Positions 9,239 to 49,919 of a stretch of DNA of 64,000 nucleotides are shown here, one piece after another. Within the stretch, counting starts at the first letter, position 1. Each line of letters begins with the position of its first letter. Where the stretch lies: the NCBI GenBank assembly GCA_963745235.1, contig CAVUXE010000022.1, positions 1 to 64,000 on the forward strand, written 5' to 3'. The notes beneath the pieces are model-generated. The model searched no databases. It was not told where the DNA came from and saw only the letters and a program-made list of their open reading frames with translations. The translations under genes and the position numbers were made by a program. The DNA is from an uncultured Spirochaetota bacterium (GTDB lineage: Bacteria > Spirochaetota > Spirochaetia > SZUA-6 > Fen-1364).

Positions 9239-10534
9239 CTATTTGAACATGTAGCCTCCTGCGACGAGGTCCTGGTACGTCTTCTGGACAGCATCCATAG
9301 CCGCCTGGGGCGTCTTCTGTTGCCCGACAACAGCCTGGATCTGCTCCTGGAAGGCATTCACGATTTTCTGCGGCCAGGTCCAGTCAAGGAAAGTCACCGT
9401 GTGCGGAAGGAATTCGCTTCTCAACTGCTGCGCAAGGGGATCCGCGTTGGGTATCTGGACGTTGACGTTGACCGCGAGCGGGTTGTGCGCCTGGATGCAG
9501 TATGCCTGGTCGAACGAATCATTTGTGACAAAATCGATGAACTTTTCCGCCAGGGAAAGGCGGGACGGGTCGATGGCTGCATAGATGGTGGCCGCATTGC
9601 CGCTTCCACCCGTCATCTGGACCGGCAGGCTGCTGCCCGTGAGCTTCGGGAACGGAAGAACGCCAAGTTGATCAGCCGTCATTCCAGCCTGCCGGAAGCC
9701 TGCAATTTCCCACGTGCCTCCGTAGAACATCGCAGCCTTGCCTGATGTGAAAATTGCCTGTGCGCCGCCGCGATCGTCCACGCCGTTCACGTCCGGCTCG
9801 AATACGCCATCCTTGCCGAGATTGGCGAGCGCCTGCATTGCGTCCAGGTACGCGGGATCGGTGAAGGTCGTCTTCCCCTGCAGTGTCTGCCGCGTCAATT
9901 CCTCGGACTGGTTGTTGGCGGTCTGAGCGAACGTCTGGAAGAACCACATGGGCCACATGTAAATGGTGCTGCCGCCCATGGCGATGCCGTAGACCCCCTG
10001 CTCCTTCAGTGCCTTCACCACCGCGACGAGGTCATCATATGTCTTGGGAGGCGCGAGGTTGTATTTTGCAAAGATCTGCTTGTTGTAGTACAAGGCGCTG
10101 GTATTCATTGCTCCGTAGGGAATTGCATAGAGGTGGCCCTCGACGGCGTAGGGCGTAAGAGAGGTCGGAACGAACCTGTCCTTGTACGTGACGACGTCAG
10201 TCAGATTTTTCAGTAGGCCATCGAGCGCCATCCAGCGCACGTCCTGCCCGTTCTGGGTCAGCGCATCGATCTGGGATTTTGCCTGAACCGCCGCAATGAA
10301 CTTTTCATGGAAGTTTTCAGACGGCACTGTTGCAATCTGGATGTCCACATTGTTCTGCTGCTCAAAAGGCTTGTACTGGTCGGCAAACCATTGCGCGAAG
10401 CTGGTATCAATGTTCCAGACGATCATGGTCTGCTTTGCACCCGGAGAGGGCGCCCCCTTTTCCTTCGTTCCCGTGGCGAATCCCGCCGCTGCAACCAGAA
10501 GAAAGATTACTCCGATCCCGAATCGAGTTCTCAT
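9239..10534 (-). CDS. Sugar ABC transporter substrate-binding protein
   Basis: Signal peptide, LYAIPY...LYYNKQIF, FTSGKAAM. Confidence 0.93.
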   Translation of the reverse strand: MRTRFGIGVIFLLVAAAGFATGTKEKGAPSPGAKQTMIVWNIDTSFAQWFADQYKPFEQQNNVDIQIATVPSENFHEKFIAAVQAKSQIDALTQNGQDVRWMALDGLLKNLTDVVTYKDRFVPTSLTPYAVEGHLYAIPYGAMNTSALYYNKQIFAKYNLAPPKTYDDLVAVVKALKEQGVYGIAMGGSTIYMWPMWFFQTFAQTANNQSEELTRQTLQGKTTFTDPAYLDAMQALANLGKDGVFEPDVNGVDDRGGAQAIFTSGKAAMFYGGTWEIAGFRQAGMTADQLGVLPFPKLTGSSLPVQMTGGSGNAATIYAAIDPSRLSLAEKFIDFVTNDSFDQAYCIQAHNPLAVNVNVQIPNADPLAQQLRSEFLPHTVTFLDWTWPQKIVNAFQEQIQAVVGQQKTPQAAMDAVQKTYQDLVAGGYMFK

Positions 10535-10619
10535 CGTTCTCCTCCTCGGATTTGACGCTATCCGGTGGAAGTGCCCACCGCCTGATACAAAAGTACTTGA
10601 ACGCGGAGCCGGCAGCCCA

Positions 10620-11708
10620 TCACCTCCTTTCCAGGGATGAATCCGGCGGCGCGCGCGGGGGTTCCGCAGCCTCCGGCTTCTTCAATGACCGGGTGGAGTC
10701 CCGGATGACCAGTTCCGGCTTGAACGTGAGCGCCTGTCTTCCATCCGTTTTCTCATCCCGGATTTCGAAGAGCAGTTCCACGGCCCTTCTCGCCATTTCC
10801 TTGATGGGCTGGTTGACCGTGGTCAGCCGCGGATTGCAGAACTCTGACTGAACCAGATTGTCCATTCCAACCACGGAGATCTGCTCCGGGACCCTGACTC
10901 CTTTTCGCTGCAGCTCGCTCATTGCCCCGATTGCCATGAGATCGTTCTGGGCCCAGATGGCAGTCACGCGAATGCCGTTTTCGACGATGGCCCGGGCGGC
11001 CGCTCGCCCCGAAGCGAACTCGAAGTCCCCTTTGAATATCTGGCGCTCCTCCAGACTGATGGAGGCATGGGAGAGCGCGTCCCGGAAACCCCGGAGGCGC
11101 TCCTGACTGACAAATTGGTTCCAGGGGCCAGTGACGCAGAAACACTGCCGGTGCCCAAGGGCAGCCAGGTGTTCGCCTGCCAGCCTGCCGGCCTCACAGT
11201 CGTCCAGCAAGACCCGGCAGGAGTCCTGGGAGTCCTGGTAGCAGTCGAAAAGCACCAGAGGGAGGGTTGAATCTCGTATCGTGTGGAACATCTGCTCGTT
11301 GACGAACGGCGACAAGAGGATCAATCCGTCGATTTTTCTCCCAAGCAGCTTGTGAACAACGCGCGTCTCTGTTTCCGGGCTCAACCCTTTCGTGTTGGCC
11401 AGGATGAGAGTGAACCCGTGTCTTGAGGTGTAATCTTCCACGTAATTGATGACGCTGGAGAAGAACTCATGGGATATCTCCGTCAGCACCAAACCGATGA
11501 ATCCGCCGCTCTTCTCCTTCAGTCCCCTGGCAAGGAGATTGGGAACATAATTCAGCTCTCGGATGACTTTCAGGACTCGCTCTTTGGTGTCCTTTTCAAC
11601 AGTTGCAGAATTGGTGACAACGCGAGAGACGGTTGCGATTGAAACGCCCGCCTTACGGGCAACTTCCTTGATTGACGGCAGTGGCGATGAAGGCAACGGA
11701 ACCTCCAT
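10620..11708 (-). CDS. LacI family transcriptional regulator
   Basis: SIKEVARKAGVSIATVSRV HTH, YVPNLLARGL, PRLTTVNQP. Confidence 0.96.
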   Translation of the reverse strand: MEVPLPSSPLPSIKEVARKAGVSIATVSRVVTNSATVEKDTKERVLKVIRELNYVPNLLARGLKEKSGGFIGLVLTEISHEFFSSVINYVEDYTSRHGFTLILANTKGLSPETETRVVHKLLGRKIDGLILLSPFVNEQMFHTIRDSTLPLVLFDCYQDSQDSCRVLLDDCEAGRLAGEHLAALGHRQCFCVTGPWNQFVSQERLRGFRDALSHASISLEERQIFKGDFEFASGRAAARAIVENGIRVTAIWAQNDLMAIGAMSELQRKGVRVPEQISVVGMDNLVQSEFCNPRLTTVNQPIKEMARRAVELLFEIRDEKTDGRQALTFKPELVIRDSTRSLKKPEAAEPPRAPPDSSLERR

Positions 11709-11735
11709 GTAAACGTATACGAATACGTTTACATG
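11706..11735. promoter_or_regulatory. Perfect 13-bp inverted repeat / tandem LacI-type operators
   Basis: CATGTAAACGTAT-ACGA-ATACGTTTACATG overlapping the LacI start; each half resembles the TGTAAACG...TACA LacI-family site. Confidence 0.75.
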
Positions 11736-11781
11736 ACGAAAATGTAAGCCAGAAAGTCAATCATGTCAATAAGGGGACGTT

Positions 11782-12110
11782 ATGGTGTCAGCAGGAGTCG
11801 GCATCATCAACGGGCTACTCGTCACGCGCGCAAAGATCAACTCCTTCAGCGCGACCCTCGGGACGGGCACGTTGATCTACGGCGTGTCAAACCTGTACGC
11901 AGGGGGTGCTCAGGTGACCGGTGCGCTGCCGGATGCCTTTGTGGCAATATCCTCGGCCCCGCTGGGAATCCCGCTTCCTGCGGTCTACGTGGTCGTACTC
12001 GGGACGGCTCTGTGGATCGTAGAGGAGTATCGCCCCCTGGGCCGCTGCCTCTATGTGCTGGGCGCGAATCCCCGGGCAGCGCTCCTCACCGGCATTCCGG
12101 AATGGAGTCG
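11782..12110 (+). pseudogene. Internal fragment of an RbsC-type sugar ABC permease
   Basis: GIINGLLVTRAKINSFSATLG...GRCLYVLGANPRAALLTGI; both ends missing. Confidence 0.75.
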
Positions 12111-12263
12111 CCGCCAGCGGGCTGTGAAAGGGCGGTTCGGAAGCGGGTCTGCAGCGCGTGGTGAGCCCGTCTACCGTGCTATCGGCGGGCATGCCGGAGA
12201 TCGCCGACCTCGCTGAACGTCAAGGCGACACGAGTGTTCAAGTCGTCGATACGGACAAATTCA

Positions 12264-12291
12264 TTGACAGATCACTGAAACAGCATAGACT
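12264..12291 (+). promoter_or_regulatory. Putative sigma70 promoter of the cyclase gene
   Basis: TTGACA-16 nt-TAGACT, with AAAGGA RBS before ATG 12322. Confidence 0.55.
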
Positions 12292-12321
12292 CACGTCAAG
12301 ATCAATTCAAAGGATTTCAGA

Positions 12322-13839
12322 ATGACCACAAACCCACGCGCAAGCACTTCTGTTGCTACTGAACATCCGCAGCGTCCTTCCCTCGAGCGTATTGTTGAAG
12401 CAGCCGACCGGCCACTATTGGTGCTCGCACTTGGAGCGGTCGCCTTGTATCTTTTGGAATTGAGGGGAGTCATCGCTCCAACAGGACCGGCGACGGTTGT
12501 CTCGGCCGTTCTTGATGCACTTTTCGTTACTGATGTCCTGGTCAAAATTGCAGTCATGCGCGGGCGCTACTTCCGCTCTGCCTGGATTGTTACTGATGTG
12601 TTGAGCTGTTTGCCGGGCATTTCACTTTTGGCAAACGTACCATGGCTGATGGCGGTGCAGTTCACGCGGATGTTCCGCGTACTGAGGGTGCTCCGTGGAC
12701 TTCGTGTGCTCCGCTCGCTTCAGTTCATGCCCTCGCTCGCGAGGATTGCTACCGAGCAAGATGAGGAGGGAGAACGGTTTAGAATTGGGATGAATCTTGG
12801 CGTCGCCTTCTATGCCGCCGCGTTCTTGGCAGTGTTGGTCTGGCTGCATGGCGAACTCTCTTCAGTGCCAATGGTCCTGGAAAGGGCGGAGTTCTTTCTT
12901 GTGGTGGGAGCTCTCTTATCGACAGCACTTTTCCTTTTCCTGATTCACATCGAAGTGCATGAATCCTCCTATAACCAGCTCAAAGGCCTCTTGAACATCG
13001 CTCTTCCAAAACAAGTAGCAGAGCACTTTCTGCATAATCCTGGAGCGTACCACGAACGGCATCGGGCGCCTGCAACTACGCTCTTCATTGACTTTGTAGG
13101 TTTTTCATCGACTGCCGAAAAACTGCGCGCCGATGTGCAGGCACTCGCATACCATCTCGAACGCGTGATGGATGTGGTGGTCGAAAGGCTTGTCGCTCAT
13201 GATCTCATTATTGACAAGTTCATTGGCGATGCAGTGATGGCATTCCGTGGTGGTCCCCTTGTAAAGGGAGATGAATCTGATCATGCGAAGGCGGTAGTCC
13301 GTGCAGCTCTGGAAGCAGCAGCCGCACTTACCGAAATGAATGATCCCTATTTTTCGCGAGTAAAGATCGGAGGCGCCTCCGATGAATGTCTCATTGGCGC
13401 GTTCGGCACGAGCAGGAGGCTGTCATATACGGCTTTGGGTGATGGAGTGAATCTCGCGGCCCGCTTGGAGCCGGCAAGCGCGCAATGCAAGGCGCATGCT
13501 TTGTTTTGCGACGCGACGCGACGGTTGTGTGGTGAGATGCCTGGAATTGAATGGCGACGCTGGGGAACGATTCGTGTCAAGGGAAAGGCTGACCCGCAGG
13601 TTGTATGGGAAGCTTTGGATGCCTCACAGCCACATGACTACTCATTCATAGCCCTGTACGAACGAGGGCGGCAGATTTTTGAAAACGAGGGACCGGCGCA
13701 AGCTCGGCCGCATTTTGAGGAAGCTAATGCAATTCGCCCCGGGGGTGATCCTCCGAGCCAGTTTCACCTCGATTGGTGCGATGAGCTGCAAAAAAACGGC
13801 AACACTGTGAGAGATACTTCGCTTTCTGTGTCAAAGTAG
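12322..13839 (+). CDS. Class III adenylyl cyclase with N-terminal voltage-sensor-like (Ion_trans S1-S4) membrane domain
   Basis: S4-like RMFRVLRVLRGLRVLR; cyclase motifs LFIDFVGFS, DKFIGDAVMA, YTALGDGVNLAARLE; TPR-like tail. Confidence 0.85.
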   Translation: MTTNPRASTSVATEHPQRPSLERIVEAADRPLLVLALGAVALYLLELRGVIAPTGPATVVSAVLDALFVTDVLVKIAVMRGRYFRSAWIVTDVLSCLPGISLLANVPWLMAVQFTRMFRVLRVLRGLRVLRSLQFMPSLARIATEQDEEGERFRIGMNLGVAFYAAAFLAVLVWLHGELSSVPMVLERAEFFLVVGALLSTALFLFLIHIEVHESSYNQLKGLLNIALPKQVAEHFLHNPGAYHERHRAPATTLFIDFVGFSSTAEKLRADVQALAYHLERVMDVVVERLVAHDLIIDKFIGDAVMAFRGGPLVKGDESDHAKAVVRAALEAAAALTEMNDPYFSRVKIGGASDECLIGAFGTSRRLSYTALGDGVNLAARLEPASAQCKAHALFCDATRRLCGEMPGIEWRRWGTIRVKGKADPQVVWEALDASQPHDYSFIALYERGRQIFENEGPAQARPHFEEANAIRPGGDPPSQFHLDWCDELQKNGNTVRDTSLSVSK

Positions 13840-13875
13840 ATCCAACGGATTGACGCCGATGTAATTCGAAGTTGG

Positions 13876-14661
13876 CTATTCCTTGACGTCCAGCACCACA
13901 TAGACAGGGAAGTGATCACTCTCGTTTTTGCGTGATCCAATGTAATCAGTCGTCCAATAGTCCACGTCAGCCTTTTCCAGCCTCGATCGAATAGCCGCCG
14001 GAATGAACATGTGGTCATAGAAGTGATCCGGTCCATGGGCACCGATGGTGGTTCCTTCAGGTGGAATGACGTCGTTGACTCCCTGATTCGTCAAAGAAAA
14101 GAAATCTCCTGCCTTGTCTTCATTAAAATCACCCACGACGATCGTGTCCCCTTTGTTTTGTGACAGGCCATCAAAATAGCGGTAGACTTCATCGAGATGC
14201 GCGATTTCGGCCACCCGTTGCTTCTCGCTCTTGCCATAAACGATGTGACAAGCAACGAGGTTGAAGGTGAAGCCTGTCGACCTCACTCTGAATTGCACGC
14301 CATAAGGAGGACGGAAGAACTCGTGTGCCTGGGGATACTCGCCAAGGTCGCGACTGAGCTCTACCTTGTTGTCGTAATAGAACCCGAAGTGCTCTTGGTA
14401 ACGATTTGAGCCTTCCCCCTGTGCGCTCGTAAAATCAGCCCACGTTGTTCCGAGTTGTGCGAGCACGTCCGCCATGCCCTGTGCGTTCATAACCTCCTCC
14501 GCAGCCACGACATCGAAGCCAGCTATTACTTTGGCAAGCGTCGCGTAGTCCTTATGATTCTGGCCGAGGCGCTCCATATTATATGAGGCGACACTGAGCT
14601 CTTGCCCGATAAGAGCAAGAGAAACAAATGAAAACACAACAATGATGAATTGCTTCTTCAT
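13876..14661 (-). CDS. Secreted endonuclease/exonuclease/phosphatase (DNase I-like)
   Basis: Signal peptide, ASYN, EE, VVGDFN, YDH, SDHFPV motifs. Confidence 0.9.
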   Translation of the reverse strand: MKKQFIIVVFSFVSLALIGQELSVASYNMERLGQNHKDYATLAKVIAGFDVVAAEEVMNAQGMADVLAQLGTTWADFTSAQGEGSNRYQEHFGFYYDNKVELSRDLGEYPQAHEFFRPPYGVQFRVRSTGFTFNLVACHIVYGKSEKQRVAEIAHLDEVYRYFDGLSQNKGDTIVVGDFNEDKAGDFFSLTNQGVNDVIPPEGTTIGAHGPDHFYDHMFIPAAIRSRLEKADVDYWTTDYIGSRKNESDHFPVYVVLDVKE

Positions 14662-15031
14662 ACAGATACGCTATCAGAAAGAGGCCCTGAGCAAAAGGAT
14701 TACCGCCAACTGCCCATGCGTGCCAGTTCCTTTCCGGGGACTCACAGGATACGGCGCATGCTACGCAGGGCTAGCTGCCGAGCTGGTTGCGCAGTGGACC
14801 ACGTTTGACCCTCGGGGCCACAGGCTGATTGCAAGGAGACGAACGTCGCCAGCCATTCGCGGCAGAGACGCTTTCCCTTACTTGGATTTCTGGATAGGCT
14901 CTGAGCTCGACGCGAGCGGAGAACGCCGCCTTCAAGCACTTTGGCTTTTGGGTCGGCAAGCCAGCGGAGACTCGAACAGGCGGCGTGGTTCCTGGCTTCA
15001 GCGGACGTGCGCCACGGGAGAGGGAGATGCC

Positions 15032-15208: not shown

Positions 15209-15295
15209 AGTCTTGTGAAGCTCGAGCGCCGGATGGGTGAGCCTCTCCCGCTTCGTGGATGGACTTGCAGATTGTCCAGGGATAGACTTGGTGAG

Positions 15296-15628
15296 ATGGC
15301 AAAAGCATCTGCACTCGACCAGCGCTGGCTCCGGGGTGTGGTACAAACGATCGTTCGGCGCTACAAACCGATTCGCATTGTCCTGTTCGGATCGTATGCC
15401 CGCGGAGACTACAACGCGGCGAGTGATCTCGATCTTTTCCTTCTTGTACCAGACGCGGCGGACTGGTTCGAGCGTGCGCTGGAGTTCAAGCGGCTGATCC
15501 CCGAGGAGCGGCTTCCCGTTGAGGCGCACATCTACACCGCCCAGGAGTACGCTCGCATGAAGGCAGCTGACAACCCGCTTGTTCTGCAGATAGAGGCCGA
15601 AGGGAAGGTCCTGTACGAACAACAATGA
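15296..15628 (+). CDS. Minimal nucleotidyltransferase (MNT) antitoxin-like
   Basis: IVLFGSYARGD...SDLDL motif. Confidence 0.9.
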   Translation: MAKASALDQRWLRGVVQTIVRRYKPIRIVLFGSYARGDYNAASDLDLFLLVPDAADWFERALEFKRLIPEERLPVEAHIYTAQEYARMKAADNPLVLQIEAEGKVLYEQQ

Positions 15629-16028
15629 ACGGGAAGCACTCCGCTGGTACCGCCAGGGGAGGCGGGACGGAGAGACTGCGGCCAGGAATGCTGCCTCGGG
15701 CGATCACGAGGTGGCCTGTTTTCTCTACCAGCAGGGCGCAGAAAAACTTCTGAAGGCAGTGCTGTATCTCAAGGGCGAGCGTCCCGTGGTTGGTCATGCC
15801 GCAACGCATCTGGCGGCGCGCTGCGCGGAGTATGAACCTGGATTCGAGGGTCTGCTCGAGGCGTGCAGGGAACTGGACGTTTTCTACATTCCCACCCGAT
15901 ATCCGAATGGCCTACCGGATGGCGCCCCGTACGAGTTTTTTGGGCCGCGACATTCCGAGCGGGGTGCCGGCGCTTACAACAAGGTTTCGGAGAAGGTTGC
16001 GCTCCTCTTCGCGCGTATTGGCGAATGA
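15615..16028 (+). CDS. HEPN domain protein (partner of MNT)
   Basis: ACFLYQQGAEKLLKA, GH, YIPTRYP motifs; family-like N-terminus (EALRWYRQG) extends upstream of the GTG at 15711 to an ACG at 15615. Confidence 0.85.
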   Translation, partial: TNNNEREALRWYRQGRRDGETAARNAASGDHEVACFLYQQGAEKLLKAVLYLKGERPVVGHAATHLAARCAEYEPGFEGLLEACRELDVFYIPTRYPNGLPDGAPYEFFGPRHSERGAGAYNKVSEKVALLFARIGE

Positions 16029-46864: not shown

Positions 46865-49800
46865 TTGGCGGATACCATCGAGACGCTGCAGGCGGAGCCC
46901 GCACCGCCTGGCCTGGCTGAAGAGGCCATCCTCACCACCCACCGCATCCTTGCGGCGTTCGGCCGCGACAGCCGTACCTTGGACGTCCTCCACGCTGACC
47001 TGTTCGACTCCCGGTCCGCCGTCGCCCTCTCCGCCCTCGAGGCGGTGAGCGCAATTGCGGACCGCCGCAGCTTCGTGTACGTGGCGCGCCTGTTCAACCA
47101 CCCGGACCCGTCCATCGTTTGCGCTGCCGTGCAGGCGGCGGGAACCATAGCCCTGCCGGAAGGGCTTCCCCTTCTCCTTTCGCTTTCTACCAATACCCGG
47201 GATGAGACTGTGAAGCTGGAAGTCCTCCGCGCGCTCGTCCGCGGCTTTCCGAGCTCACCAGAGACCCGCCAGCTTGCTCTGACGCTGTCCCTTTCAGTGG
47301 CCGTTCAACCTGAGATCCGCACCGCGTGCCTCGAGATGCTTGCCCAGATTCCGGGAACGGGAAGCCCCGTGGAGCTGGCCGCGCAGCACCCCGATATTCT
47401 GCCCTTCCTTCTCAAGAAAGCCAAGAAAGACGACAGCCTCTGCCAGGCGCTCCTTGCCGCATATGAAAGCACCCATGCGCAGAACCCGGTGGCTCTCCGG
47501 GCGGCGCTTGTCTCCCTTGCCGCATCCTTTTCCTCGAAGCCGGCGCTTTCCATCTTCCTCGAATCTCTGCAGGGGGAGAATCCCACCGTGCGGCGGGAGT
47601 GCTACCGCCATCTCGGAGCCCACCCGGGCCAGATACCCGGCTTCGATGCTGTTTGCGCCGTGCTGGTCGGGACGGTGGAAAGCGATCCATCGATGGAGGA
47701 AGAGGCCCTGGCGGCCATCGATTCGATGGAATCCTCCCTGCAGACGGCCGGATCGACCCCTTCCCTGCCGTCCCTCGCCGGCTTGTCCGCGGTCATCGGC
47801 GGATCGTTCGATGAGCTGCGCTCTGCCGTGCGCGCGGATCTTGACACTTCCCACGAGATGGGCCAGCAGATCGCGAGCGCCAAGGAATACCTGGAGTTCA
47901 ATCTCAGTGAGGAGATAAAGAAGGTATTTCTCCAGTCCATCAGGAGCGGAGCAGGCCAGCACTTGAGGCGTGAGTGCGCCCTCGCGTTGAAGGATTCCGC
48001 GGTGCGGCTCGAACCGCGCCATGTCGAGGGATACAAGATCATGGTTTCCCTGCTCGGAGATCCGGGCCGCGCCGGTGTCGCGCTTTTCATGAGGAACCTC
48101 GTGCACGCAGACACCGGCAAGCGAAACATTCTCTGTCGGCTCAAGCGGTCACTCGCCCTGGCGCGACTGGCGCCTCCCGCCGAGTCCAAAGAGCTGTTCC
48201 TCTCTCTTCTGGAGTGGGCGCGGACCATGAAGCTCTTCCGCCTGGCAGAGCTTGCACTGTTCGCCCTGCACCGCGTGGATCCCTCCGCGGCCCTCACCGT
48301 CTGCCGCGAGTTCATGACCCCGCCCGTGGCCAACAAGTTCCTCGCCACCGCGGCCTTCGATCTCCTGAAGGAAATGGACCTCGCGGCAATGGAGCCGGCG
48401 ATAATCGGACTGCTGCACGAGAACGACCGATACATCCGCCTCCTGCTCCTGGAATCCCTCGCCTCCGTGGAGACCTTGCCCGGGCGTGAATCTTTCCCGC
48501 GCCCTCCTTCAGCTCTTCTGCACGGAAGCGGACACGGAGATCACCTCCAAGCTCGTCGATCTTCTGGGAGCGAGGGGAGACGAGGTGGTCGCACGGGCGC
48601 TCACCGAGGTCTATGACCGGCTCGACCCGTGGAAGAAGACGCTCGCGATTTCCCTTCTCAGCCGCATCGCGCAGAGAACGGGTGCGGACAGCAGACCCAT
48701 CCTCACCGAGTTCCTCTACCGTGTCCTCCGCGCCGACTCACCGCCGGTCCTCGCGCGGGTGCCGTCAGCGCTGATCGCCCTGGGGGACGACTACGCTCCC
48801 AACGTGCTGCGCGACCTGCTTCCGCGCCTCGGCGCGGCGGAGCAAGCCACCCTGGTGAGGGACCTGCGGGACACCCTGCGGCCCGCGGTGATAGCCGTGA
48901 TCTGGTCACTCCTGCGGGAAAAGGATCCGGGCCTGCAACAGACCCTCCGTGAGATTCTGCCCCGCACCTCGGATCCCCGCGCTCAGCAACTGCTCGTCAG
49001 CATGGTGCGCACCCTGCGCACGAACATCAGCGAGGTCGAGCCGGAGAAAACAGAGGCAGCCGTGCAGGAGGCCGCCCGTCTTTCTTCGGAGAAAGAGACG
49101 TACCGCTTCGAACGGGAGCACACCATCGAGTGCGCGGTGCTGTTCACCGACATCCAGGACTACTCCGTCAAGGCGCAGGAGATCTCCGCGCTGGAGTTGG
49201 GCGCCCTGCTCCAGGAGTACGAGGGGATCCTCCTTCCCATCCTGGATGCCCACGAAGGGACCCTGGTGAAAAGGATGGGAGACGGACACCTGTTCGTCTT
49301 CCGCAAGCGGCTTTCCGCGGTGCTGGCCGCAATCCGGCTGCAGAAAGCCCTGCGGCGCTACAACCGTTTCCGCCCGGAGAAACAGCGGGTGCAGGTCAGG
49401 ATCGGCATCCACTGGGGGGAGGTGGTCGAAAGACCCGGCGACGTGCTTGGCAACACGGTGAACATAGCCTCCCGTTTGCAGTCCGTGGCATTGGGCGGTT
49501 CCACCTGCATGTCGCACGAGGTGTACAGCAAGGTGGCGGACTGGATTCATGCGAACGATCTGGGTACGCTCAAGATCAAAGGCATCCGGGACCCGATCCG
49601 GGCCTGGGAGCCCACGGAGGCCGCCCTTGGCATGCCTGCGGACCTGGATCCGCTCAAGCGGGGCGGCCCCCGGGACGCTGCGTCCCGCATCAACAGCCTC
49701 GACGGCACCTTTTCCCGCTCTCACGATGATGTGCTGGTGGCAGTCCTTTCGCAGACCTTCCAGCACCTCCAAGCCGTCAGCCGCAAGAGCGCCCGCAGCG

Positions 49801-49919
49801 GAGAAGAGGCCGTTATCGATGACGAGTTCCTCAAGGCGTGGGAGACTCTCCAGTCCCTGTTCCCCTCGATTGCGGACAGCGACAATCAGCCAGGCTCGAC
49901 GGAACCTCAGAACGAATGA
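46865..49919 (+). CDS. HEAT-repeat protein with C-terminal class III adenylyl cyclase, frameshift ~48483
   Basis: Helical HEAT-like repeats; AVLFTDIQDYS, VKRMGDG, DVLGNTVNIASRLQ; ORFs 46865-48616 and 48486-49919 join at CCCGGG. Confidence 0.8.

Follow-up and report, generated by a model that had tools for sequence, protein, structure and literature searches.

A predicted spirochaete adenylyl cyclase with a pore-less voltage-sensor domain

Introduction

In alveolates, adenylyl cyclase (AC) fusions with a channel-like membrane part have been described by Weber et al. 2004 and Schultz et al. 1992, as cited in PMC10651576, PMC12414865 and PMC3283738. According to the citing papers, cAMP production in Paramecium is tied to the membrane potential, by hyperpolarisation. 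[quoted passage not shown] 2005).

A 2025 viewpoint (PMC12414865) describes channel-cyclases as restricted to protozoans and S4-type helices as absent from membrane cyclases, and it takes up again the old question of voltage sensing by adenylyl cyclase membrane domains. No bacterial enzyme is listed in a 2023 voltage-sensor review (PMC10651576) or in a 2024 review (PMC13095418), and the word 'cyclase' does not occur in the latter. Our full-text search of the literature outside subscription journals turned up no account of a voltage-sensor cyclase in bacteria.

Here we analyse a gene of an uncultured Spirochaetota bacterium whose product appears to combine the two parts. Its homologues carry automatic database labels ('adenylate/guanylate cyclase domain-containing protein' or 'ion transporter'), and the architecture is visible to any observer because the databases already label both domains automatically. 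The novelty is the recognition and the function of the architecture, not the domain labels.

Results

Gene, expression signals and domain architecture

The window (the whole stretch of DNA analysed, 64,000 nucleotides of contig CAVUXE010000022.1) contains an open reading frame at 12322-13839 for a protein of 505 residues, referred to as P0001. An original prediction, made from the letters of the sequence, saw in this frame six hydrophobic segments ahead of a complete class III cyclase, the first four of them resembling a voltage-sensing domain (VSD). The features are as follows (residue numbers refer to P0001).

12264..12291, + strand: sigma-70-like promoter candidate (TTGACA, 16 nt spacer, TAGACT; consensus match 10/12)
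12309..12314, + strand: Shine-Dalgarno-like AAAGGA with the ATG 7 nt downstream (direct sequence reading)
12322..13839, + strand: CDS of the predicted voltage-sensor-domain adenylyl cyclase P0001, 505 aa (ORF list, translation, Pfam Ion_trans and Guanylate_cyc)
12412..12468, + strand: S1, residues ~31-49, acidic residue at 46 near the outer end (hydropathy peak)
12493..12558, + strand: S2, residues ~58-79, with D65, F68, D71 and K75 (F-x-x-D-x-x-x-K)
12577..12633, + strand: S3, residues ~86-104, with W88, D92 and P98
12649..12723, + strand: S4, residues ~110-134, with Arg at every third position (116, 119, 122, 125, 128, 131)
12724..12786, + strand: acidic, amphipathic cytoplasmic segment resembling an S4-S5 linker, residues 135-155 (3 K/R, 5 D/E; between S4 and the next hydropathy peak)
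12787..12849, + strand: TM5, residues ~156-176 (hydropathy peak, maximal Kyte-Doolittle value 2.07; beyond the Pfam Ion_trans match)
12850..12885, + strand: short periplasmic TM5-TM6 loop, no pore loop or selectivity filter
12886..12954, + strand: TM6, residues ~189-211 (hydropathy peak, maximal Kyte-Doolittle value 2.48)
12955..13059, + strand: helical linker resembling a cyclase-transducer element, residues 212-246 (includes LLNIALPKQVA)
13069..13599, + strand: class III cyclase catalytic domain, residues 250-426 (Pfam PF00211)
13627..13836, + strand: C-terminal tail, residues 436-505, conserved, with a single TPR-like helix hairpin ahead of a G-D-P-P-S ... C motif

The consensus scan behind the promoter candidate returned 5 promoter-pattern sites in 11600-14800 compared with 1.7 expected from shuffles, each site being a pattern match only.

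The hydropathy scan and Pfam together bear out the six segments ahead of a complete cyclase. Kyte-Doolittle peaks (19-residue scan) were found at residues of about 24-54, 54-81, 86-114, 153-187 and 184-215, with the amphipathic S4 (mean 0.44) lying below the other segments. A Pfam scan, which had been proposed as a check along with the prediction, placed both expected domains above their cut-offs: Ion_trans (PF00520) at residues 55-138 (E 4.2e-10; 39.7 bits, cut-off 25), where the match covers only the S2-S4 portion of the profile, and Guanylate_cyc (PF00211) at residues 250-426 (E 8.2e-10; 39 bits, cut-off 21.9). The NCBIfam scan of P0001 matched no family. The S2-S3 loop contains three Lys or Arg residues and the S1-S2 and S3-S4 loops contain none, a distribution of charges consistent with a predicted N-in topology and a cytoplasmic cyclase.

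A voltage-sensor domain homologous to those of channels

We compared P0001 with solved structures using a profile of 17 sequences for the N-terminal part, searched against PDB sequences. This profile matched 177 PDB sequences at E<=0.01 (best E 7.6e-25); the 60 matches listed are all voltage-gated cation channels and include solved sensors of Nav, Cav, HCN, Kv and CatSper. Profile positions 3-119, which correspond to S1-S4, aligned in one stretch to VSD-IV of NavPaS, and P0001 alone as the query still matched a Nav VSD-IV (E 3.7e-4). S1 of P0001 aligns with S1 of the NavPaS VSD-IV, and F68, D71 and K75 of S2 align with F, E and K of its S2. In S3, W88 and D92 fall on the W and D of Nav channels, and the S4 segment lines up with its counterparts in Nav, Cav and HCN sensors. 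Judged from these alignments, the N-terminus of P0001 is homologous to S1-S4 voltage-sensor domains. The Pfam match and this homology to channel S1-S4 domains agree with the predicted voltage-sensing character of the N-terminus.

Conservation was counted over 115 family members, reaching down to about 40% identity. In S1, Y43 is kept in 110/115 and position 46 is D or E in 103/115. The S2 and S3 motifs lie where they had been placed (LFVTDVLVK at residues 67-75, WIVTDVLSCLP at residues 88-98); D71 is present in 115/115, D65 and K75 in 114/115 each and F68 in 112/115, and W88, D92 and P98 are each present in all 115. The six arginines reported at every third residue within nt 12661-12726 (residues 114-135) are found at 116-131. 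Their conservation in homologues had been named beforehand as one point on which the prediction could fail, and R116, R119, R122, R125 and R128 are Arg in every one of the 115 homologues, R131 in 110. Many homologues have additional S4 arginines at position 113 (86/115) or position 134 (75/115). According to the same alignment the charge-transfer centre (for the concept see PMC13095418) is complete, consisting of aromatic F68 and acidic D71 in S2 and acidic D92 in S3, which align with F, E and D of NavPaS VSD-IV.

Two further helices and the absence of a pore

The segment between S4 and TM5 (residues 135-155) would act as a coupling element. TM5 and TM6 had been described as separated by only about 14 residues with no GYG, and this is what we observe: the loop has about 12-14 residues (GELSSVPMVLER) and contains no GYG. 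Loop lengths in the family fall into 4-17 residues (34/115) and 49-73 residues (81/115). E190 in TM6 is kept in 115/115 homologues and G196 in 112/115.

The statement that no pore is evident holds for the family as well. A G[YF]G filter in the TM5-TM6 interval is missing from all 115 members, and the pore half of Ion_trans goes unmatched in the proteins scanned, whose matches stop at 108-120 of the 241 profile positions (120 in P0001, <=117 in all six remote members scanned). Pfam at E<=10 found no match on the piece from TM5 to the linker, and G-x-G after TM6 is absent in residues 212-250 of P0001. By contrast, the true channel of the same genome has TIGYGD and matches Ion_trans positions 3-237 of 241.

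Two channel types were considered as identities for P0001 and rejected. A full voltage-gated cation channel (sensor plus pore) fails on the pore, the Ion_trans match stopping at 120/241. The S4 signature of Hv1, a stand-alone VSD, is R-x-W-R-x-x-R. An Hv1-type proton channel does not fit P0001, whose S4 (FTRMFRVLRVLRGLRVLRSLQ) has no Trp and whose VSD is part of a longer chain with two further helices and an enzyme.

Linker, catalytic domain and C-terminal tail

The cyclase-transducer-like LLNIALPKQVA was recovered at residues 223-233. The linker aligns with the pre-catalytic segments of Cya (5o5k, 7yzi; from residue 212), AC9 (from 215), GC-A (from 220) and Cya2 (6fht; from 228), and L224, L228 and P229 are invariant in 29 sequences. 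The cyclase-transducer element (CTE) was reportedly described by Ziegler in 2017. The CTE concept and its -FGRY- motif are given in PMC5995499; the match of the P0001 linker is positional, because -FGRY- as such is absent (AEHF instead).

The catalytic domain aligns residue for residue with CyaB of P. aeruginosa (3r5g) at six catalytic positions. In class III cyclases, the residues corresponding to D257 and D303 bind metal, those corresponding to K299 and T370 specify adenine, and those corresponding to N377 and R381 act on the transition state. The two metal Asp residues, the Lys/Thr pair for ATP and the Asn/Arg pair had all been recognized in advance, and each of the six is identical in 115/115 homologues. 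The closest solved cyclase relatives are CyaB (3r5g, E 2.7e-15), Cya2 (2w01/6fht, E 1.7e-14) and CyaC (1wc0, E 1.2e-11). We predict from these residues a competent, class IIIb-like and adenylyl-specific cyclase.

The tail is conserved across the family and is also common to CHASE2-type cyclases. Its presence stands as predicted; the TPR label does so weakly, with no Pfam match on the tail at E<=10 and only weak matches (E 0.004-0.03) of a 17-sequence tail profile to the TPR regions of PEX5 and STIP1 in the PDB. The original prediction also cites a C-terminal TPR region in the ciliate and apicomplexan cyclases. All features named in the original prediction are thus present in the open reading frame at 12322-13839, the TPR-like tail being the weakest, and its interpretation is supported, at the level of sequence, wherever in-silico checks were possible.

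Family, distribution and genomic context

Homologue searches covered near-length and longer proteins. Both domains occur in 114 of the 120 homologues listed, and the family spans Spirochaetota, Planctomycetota and Myxococcota, with intact homologues at 77-84% identity on other contigs. In a quick tree the VSD-cyclases form one clade apart from three CHASE2-type cyclases (SH-aLRT 100); the tree has SH-aLRT support only, a midpoint root and long-branch warnings, and no donor or direction is drawn from it.

Within the window's own order the distribution is patchy (2/20 other genomes of the same genus, 0/20 genomes of other genera), and in both same-genus copies (G023 and G028) the match is split over two frames. 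The gene is thus possibly dispensable as well as patchy. Its GC3 is 0.54 vs 0.72-0.82 for four other genes of the window; from this low GC3, the gene was possibly acquired recently. The neighbouring Exo_endo_phos gene also has a low GC3 (0.58). Upstream lies an ABC-permease fragment covering only profile positions 65-176 of 269. All-against-all BLAST of the ORFs in 17 loci found no conserved neighbour genes; the only second cluster consists of antisense shadow ORFs.

A genome-wide domain search of the gene's own genome returned at least 23 Guanylate_cyc and at least 23 cNMP_binding matches, and both counts are lower bounds because the PF00211 search missed the focal gene despite its Pfam score above the cut-off. 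By these matches, cAMP signalling in the host genome appears extensive. The genome also encodes, elsewhere, a cAMP-gated K+ channel of the SthK/LliK type. Coupling of the cyclase to such a channel as a general rule was considered and dropped: an SthK/LliK-like channel (E<=1e-20) was found in 2/16 cyclase-carrying genomes, one of them partial.

Discussion

Proposed mechanism

We consider it probable that P0001 is a homodimeric, membrane-bound class IIIb adenylyl cyclase whose sensor is a pore-less S1-S4 VSD and whose activity is controlled by S4. The domain identities, the conserved residues, the topology and the absence of a pore are the observed frame for this proposal; the dimer state, the voltage dependence and the coupling path are what we infer within it. 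Each chain would start in the cytoplasm and cross the membrane six times, S1-S4 forming a canonical VSD and TM5/TM6 a pair lacking a P-loop; TM6 would lead through the helical, cyclase-transducer-type linker to the catalytic domain and the TPR-like tail. A homodimer with two symmetric ATP sites is expected because class III cyclases are dimeric and the chain has all six catalytic residues. A change of the membrane potential would move the arginine-rich S4 through the charge-transfer centre (F68/D71/D92), and its displacement would travel along the S4-S5 segment and through TM5 and TM6 before reaching the coiled-coil linker. By re-orienting the catalytic dimer, this linker would alter cAMP synthesis; either depolarisation or hyperpolarisation could be the activating change. 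The electrical part of the proton-motive force would in this way reach the cAMP receptors, which are numerous in the genome.

The VSD is placed where sensors sit, the module of TM6, linker, cyclase and tail being shared with CHASE2-sensor cyclases. We note that S4 charges can also be retained because they form structural salt bridges, even where voltage has no physiological part in gating. At the strongly negative resting potentials of bacteria, a sensor with six arginines might stay trapped in a single state if it lacked a shifted midpoint.

Other readings of the architecture

The VSD-like bundle may instead serve as a membrane anchor or as a receptor for something other than voltage (lipid, ion or pH), with the arginines needed for folding or ligand binding and cAMP production independent of the potential, bicarbonate/CO2 possibly being the main input. 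We regard this as rather unlikely. With T370 as its adenine-specifying Thr, P0001 bears the mark of class IIIb, a group that includes bicarbonate-responsive enzymes, and CyaB and CyaC are among the closest solved relatives. The membrane anchors of class III cyclases have been proposed as ligand receptors (PMC12414865, PMC4821796), and the 49-73-residue periplasmic insert between TM5 and TM6 of 81/115 members could bind a ligand. Against this, P0001 itself has no evident periplasmic ligand site because its outer loop has only ~12 residues, and the invariance over three phyla of F68, D71, D92 and five to six arginines at every third position exceeds the needs of a plain anchor. A bifunctional channel-cyclase of the kind proposed for Paramecium, passing ions through a TM5/TM6 assembly or by an Hv1-like omega or proton path within the VSD, with the conductance coupled to the cyclase, is in our view improbable. 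An intrinsic K+ conductance is reported for the Paramecium cyclase (cited in PMC10651576, PMC12414865 and PMC3283738), the alveolate fusions likewise do without a canonical S5-S6 pore loop and have a GXG motif after TMD6 (PMC3283738), and TM6 has an invariant E190 near its outer face. P0001, however, has no G-x-G after TM6, the Ion_trans pore half is unmatched in it and in 6/6 remote members scanned, and the TM5-TM6 interval contains G[YF]G in 0/115 members; a four-fold pore is not what a cyclase dimer would give, and S4 has no Trp, so that the Hv1 pattern is lacking.

The fusion may also be real as a family and yet have no physiological role in this host, the gene being horizontally acquired and decaying or non-functional; we think this very improbable. 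It would accord with the low GC3 of the gene and of the adjoining Exo_endo_phos gene, with the truncated ABC-permease upstream and with the two copies broken over two frames in the same genus. The copy in the window, however, is open over its full length, retains all of the conserved residues and is preceded by a promoter-like site and a ribosome-binding site, and its 77-84% identical homologues on other contigs are intact.

Significance of a possible voltage-controlled cyclase

Returning to the S4-controlled cyclase, we tentatively propose, giving it somewhat less than an even chance, that the family represents the first prokaryotic voltage-controlled enzyme, in which a pore-less S4 sensor sets cAMP synthesis from the membrane potential throughout Spirochaetota, Planctomycetota and Myxococcota; that the alveolate channel-cyclases have in it their bacterial counterpart and possibly their source; and that in this spirochaete it may form an electro-chemical loop with the SthK/LliK-type cAMP-gated K+ channel encoded elsewhere in the genome. 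In such a loop voltage could set cAMP, cAMP the K+ conductance, and this conductance in turn the voltage. If the proposal is right, membrane voltage would be turned directly into a chemical signal in a bacterium, which has never been shown in bacteria, and bacterial electrophysiology would gain a molecule that ties membrane potential to a second messenger. Members of the family are small (about 500 aa) single-chain proteins that should express in bacteria and that would join a voltage sensor to an easily assayed enzymatic output. Electromechanical coupling to a non-channel effector would become directly testable, and the proteins may offer a scaffold for voltage-to-cAMP tools.

Comparison with known systems

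The output module of P0001 has its nearest relatives in the CHASE2-sensor class IIIb cyclases (Synechocystis Cya2, 2w01/6fht; the catalytic domain of P. aeruginosa CyaB, 3r5g). Last helix, CTE, catalytic domain and G-D-P-P-S tail align at 28-30% identity over 340-510 residues, and the periplasmic CHASE2 sensor of these enzymes has the VSD in its place in P0001. Cya2, a guanylate cyclase (PMC5995499), has IDEFMGD (with Glu; 2w01) where P0001 has IDKFIGD (with Lys299). Mycobacterial Cya/Rv1625c (5o5k, 7yzi, 7yzk) and mammalian AC9 (6r3q) resemble P0001 in having six helices per catalytic domain and in the path from TM6 through a helical domain/CTE to the catalytic domain, the alignment running from residues 212-215 on. 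Mammalian membrane cyclases lack an S4-type helix (PMC12414865), whereas the first four helices of P0001 form a predicted VSD.

In SLC9C1, the sperm Na+/H+ exchanger, the protein under the control of a VSD is likewise not a channel (PMC10620092, PMC6052114); unlike P0001 it is eukaryotic and a transporter, with the VSD C-terminal to the transport domain. The alveolate AC fusions (Paramecium AC, Plasmodium/Toxoplasma AC-alpha) share with P0001 an N-terminal six-helix S4-type module followed by one class III cyclase, and their helices 5 and 6 are likewise not joined by a canonical pore loop. They differ in being eukaryotic, much larger and credited with K+ conduction; they have the GXG pore-like motif after TMD6 (PMC3283738), and P0001 does not. 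A search of longer proteins with residues 25-250 gave one match, a eukaryotic PKD/Ion_trans channel, and 0/120 longer proteins listed for the family profile carry PF00520; neither search returned an alveolate sequence, and both results are weak evidence. At the level of architecture only, P0001 has the S4-type six-helix module and the class III cyclase by which the alveolate AC-alpha type is recognized. With Ci-VSP (Murata et al. 2005) P0001 would share a pore-less S1-S4 sensor controlling a cytoplasmic enzyme; in the eukaryotic Ci-VSP a PTEN-like lipid phosphatase comes right after S4, whereas in P0001 two more helices and a coiled-coil linker lead to an enzyme that is expected to dimerise.

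Domain architecture of the sensor-cyclase fusion

The original prediction described the focal gene product as a voltage sensor joined to a class III cyclase, and all the motifs it quoted were found where it had placed them. Both domains score above the curated Pfam cut-offs.

Gene, signals and domains of the window protein
12264-12291, + strand: sigma-70-like promoter candidate, TTGACA-16-TAGACT (pattern match)
7 nt ahead of the ATG of the cyclase gene, + strand: Shine-Dalgarno-like AAAGGA (sequence read)
12322..13839, + strand: CDS of the window protein, 505 aa (ORF list, translation)
Residues 55-138: Ion_trans (PF00520), Pfam E 4.2e-10
Residues 250-426: Guanylate_cyc (PF00211), Pfam E 8.2e-10

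No NCBIfam model was found for the protein, and its Ion_trans match is limited to positions 33-120 of the 241 in the profile. Hydropathy shows five strong peaks in addition to an amphipathic S4, which together with the Lys/Arg counts of the loops (three in S2-S3, none in S1-S2 or S3-S4) fit an N-in topology with six helices and a cytoplasmic cyclase.

Identity and conservation of the voltage sensor

With residues 1-221 alone as query, the top PDB match was to an insect sodium channel, at its fourth sensor (E 3.7e-4), and behind it came further chains of the Nav, Cav, NavAb and CatSper types. An N-terminal profile (126 residues, built from the window protein and 16 full-length relatives from species genomes) matched 177 different sequences in PDB at E<=0.01 (best 7.6e-25), and each of the best 60 is a voltage-gated cation channel (Nav, Cav, HCN, Kv2.1, CatSper, NavAb chimeras). 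In NavPaS sensor IV one stretch aligns with profile positions 3-119, i.e. S1 to S4, and the window protein's S2 residues F68, D71 and K75 and S3 residues W88 and D92 align with its F, E, K, W and D, positions that a passage of a review (PMC13095418) assigns to the gating-charge transfer centre. Together with the Pfam match, both searches argue for the proposed S1-S4 voltage sensor.

A word-indexed homologue search (8000 scored) gave 847 proteins at E<=1e-3. Among the best 120 of these, PF00520 and PF00211 occur together in 114; PF00211 alone is found in five, all C-terminal fragments, and PF00520 alone in one. Our alignment of 115 sequences comprises the window protein and 114 of the best 120, from which the five fragments and the identical protein P0002 were left out. 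The six predicted S4 arginines, at every third residue, occupy residues 116-131 (within nt 12661-12726), and they are kept across the family, so S4 conservation, one of the points that the original prediction had named as able to refute it, does not do so.

Conserved sensor positions in the 115-sequence alignment
R116, R119, R122, R125, R128: Arg in 115/115
R131: 110/115
Additional Arg at positions 113 and 134: 86/115 and 75/115
D71, W88, D92, Y83, P98: each 115/115
F68: 112/115
D65, K75: each 114/115
S1 position 46, acidic: 103/115

Cyclase output module

The closest PDB entries to the catalytic domain are P. aeruginosa CyaB (2.7e-15), Synechocystis Cya2 (1.7e-14) and Spirulina CyaC (1.2e-11). 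D257, D303, K299, T370, N377 and R381 align with CyaB and are each present in 115/115, the complete ATP-type class III set that had been proposed; we take D257 and D303 to serve the metal, K299 and T370 the base, and N377 and R381 the transition state. The Lys and Thr pair (K299, T370) indicates ATP as the probable substrate and, with it, the class IIIb group. Residues 212-246 align with the pre-catalytic helical segment of Cya, AC9, GC-A and Cya2, where a passage of PMC5995499 describes the cyclase transducer element, in agreement with the predicted transducer-like linker. The predicted TPR-like tail is borne out as a tail, the last 70 residues of the protein being conserved in the family; the TPR label found no match in Pfam and weak profile matches to TPR proteins in PDB (PEX5 0.005, STIP1 0.03). 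The last membrane helix, linker, catalytic domain and tail are shared at 28-30% identity with CHASE2-sensor cyclases, so the VSD takes the place that the periplasmic sensor has in these nearest relatives.

Family and distribution

An exhaustive search of representatives gave 45 clusters at E<=1e-30. When each species was represented by a single genome, 80 loci were kept. Of these, 16 are full-length and belong to Rectinemataceae, Isosphaeraceae/Singulisphaera (two complete genomes), Myxococcota and a small number of MAGs whose labels are doubtful. A quick ML tree (43 rows) separates 40 VSD-cyclases from three CHASE2 cyclases (SH-aLRT 100); the VSD-cyclases comprise a Myxococcota-rich group and a group uniting planctomycete and spirochaete clades; given the midpoint root and long-branch warnings, no direction is drawn from it. 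Cyclase genes from this search also occur in MAGs whose records bear the names Enterobacteriaceae, Klebsiella pneumoniae and Akkermansia muciniphila (loci L014, L016 and also L052); the tree places L014 and L016 with sequences of Myxococcota, and these labels look doubtful. Across 17 loci there is no conserved neighbour gene.

Proposed mechanism and alternatives

As read from the sequence, one chain combines a canonical sensor, its gating charges invariant, with two pore-less helices, a linker of the transducer type and a catalytic domain that is complete and ATP-specific. Class III cyclases are generally dimeric. The protein would form a homodimer in which S4 displacement is relayed via the S4-S5 segment and TM5/TM6 into a coiled-coil linker, which would alter the catalytic dimer.

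The VSD might instead be a non-voltage receptor or an anchor, bicarbonate then being the chief input. Another alternative, a channel-cyclase resembling the Paramecium enzyme, turns on the pore, and none is apparent in the sequences, as originally predicted: the Ion_trans match stops at position 120 for the window protein and at 108-117 for six remote members of the family, leaving the pore half unmatched, and G[YF]G occurs between TM5 and TM6 in 0/115 family members. In contrast, a true channel in the same genome matches positions 3-237 and carries TIGYGD and a cyclic-nucleotide-binding domain. In 34/115 sequences the TM5-TM6 loop has 4-17 residues, the window protein having about 12. In 81/115 it has 49-73, and the long-loop sequences cluster with the planctomycete group in the tree sample. 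Long-loop members (P0034-P0107 etc.; L002, L005, L010) have a conserved periplasmic insert of 66-69 residues without a filter motif, which could be an extra sensory element.

The gene might also be a recent acquisition without a role in this organism. It is rare around the window's organism: 2 of 20 other same-genus genomes have it, the match being divided between two frames each time, and none of 4 same-family or 16 same-order genomes do. The split copies (G028:C193:3736-5218 and G023:C1:193059-194544) lie in overlapping frames, covering query residues 9-172 and 171-505 in one and 11-251 and 249-505 in the other, and are either frameshifted pseudogenes or MAG assembly errors. GC3 is 0.54 in the cyclase gene vs 0.72-0.82 in four other window genes; with a convergent Exo_endo_phos gene (13876-14661, GC3 0.58) it forms a low-GC3 islet (12322-14661), which is suggestive of horizontal acquisition. 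Rarity and low GC3 together point to horizontal spread.

Genomic context

The window's genome (5.85 Mb, 104 contigs, 85.7% complete) has at least 23 Guanylate_cyc and at least 23 cNMP_binding matches; these are lower bounds, since the first-look search passes over divergent Guanylate_cyc members and overlooked the focal gene itself, which is above the Pfam cut-off. cAMP signalling is thus very large for a genome of this size. The channel (476 aa, TIGYGD filter, G000:C44:86240-87670; L081:940-2370, - strand) is a cyclic-nucleotide-gated K+ channel closest to LliK (5v4s, 1.3e-78) and SthK (1.7e-77). Its sequence similarity makes it a candidate downstream target of cAMP, and a loop from voltage through cAMP to K+ conductance is conceivable in this organism. 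Of 16 other genomes with a VSD-cyclase, just 2 have a similar channel, which rules it out as a general partner.

A second class III cyclase of 477 aa lies at 48486-49919 (+ strand; Guanylate_cyc E 1.2e-15) and is unrelated to the VSD type; its N-terminal region is HEAT-like with a score below cut-off, and a 583-aa ORF (46865-48616) precedes it. Directly upstream of the focal gene, a 144-aa ORF (11782-12216, + strand; BPD_transp_2 positions 65-176 of 269, E 1.1e-8) looks like a truncated ABC permease remnant; LacI regulator and sugar-binding protein genes (9239-11708) adjoin it. An NTP_transf_2 gene (15215-15628, + strand, E 1e-11) adjoins a HEPN gene (15711-16028, + strand, E 2.3e-13), the usual MNT-HEPN toxin-antitoxin arrangement.

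Comparison with known systems

Database pipelines had already tagged both domains of the family proteins. In the full-text literature, with most subscription journals outside the scope, no bacterial voltage-sensor cyclase was found. The word "cyclase" is absent throughout the 2024 voltage-sensor review (PMC13095418), and passages of a 2025 viewpoint (PMC12414865) describe dual-function cyclases as apparently limited to protozoans and membrane cyclases as being without S4-type sequences. The interest of the voltage-sensor cyclase family is high because it is directly testable; already known are voltage-controlled enzymes (VSP) and the S4-cyclase fusions of protozoa.
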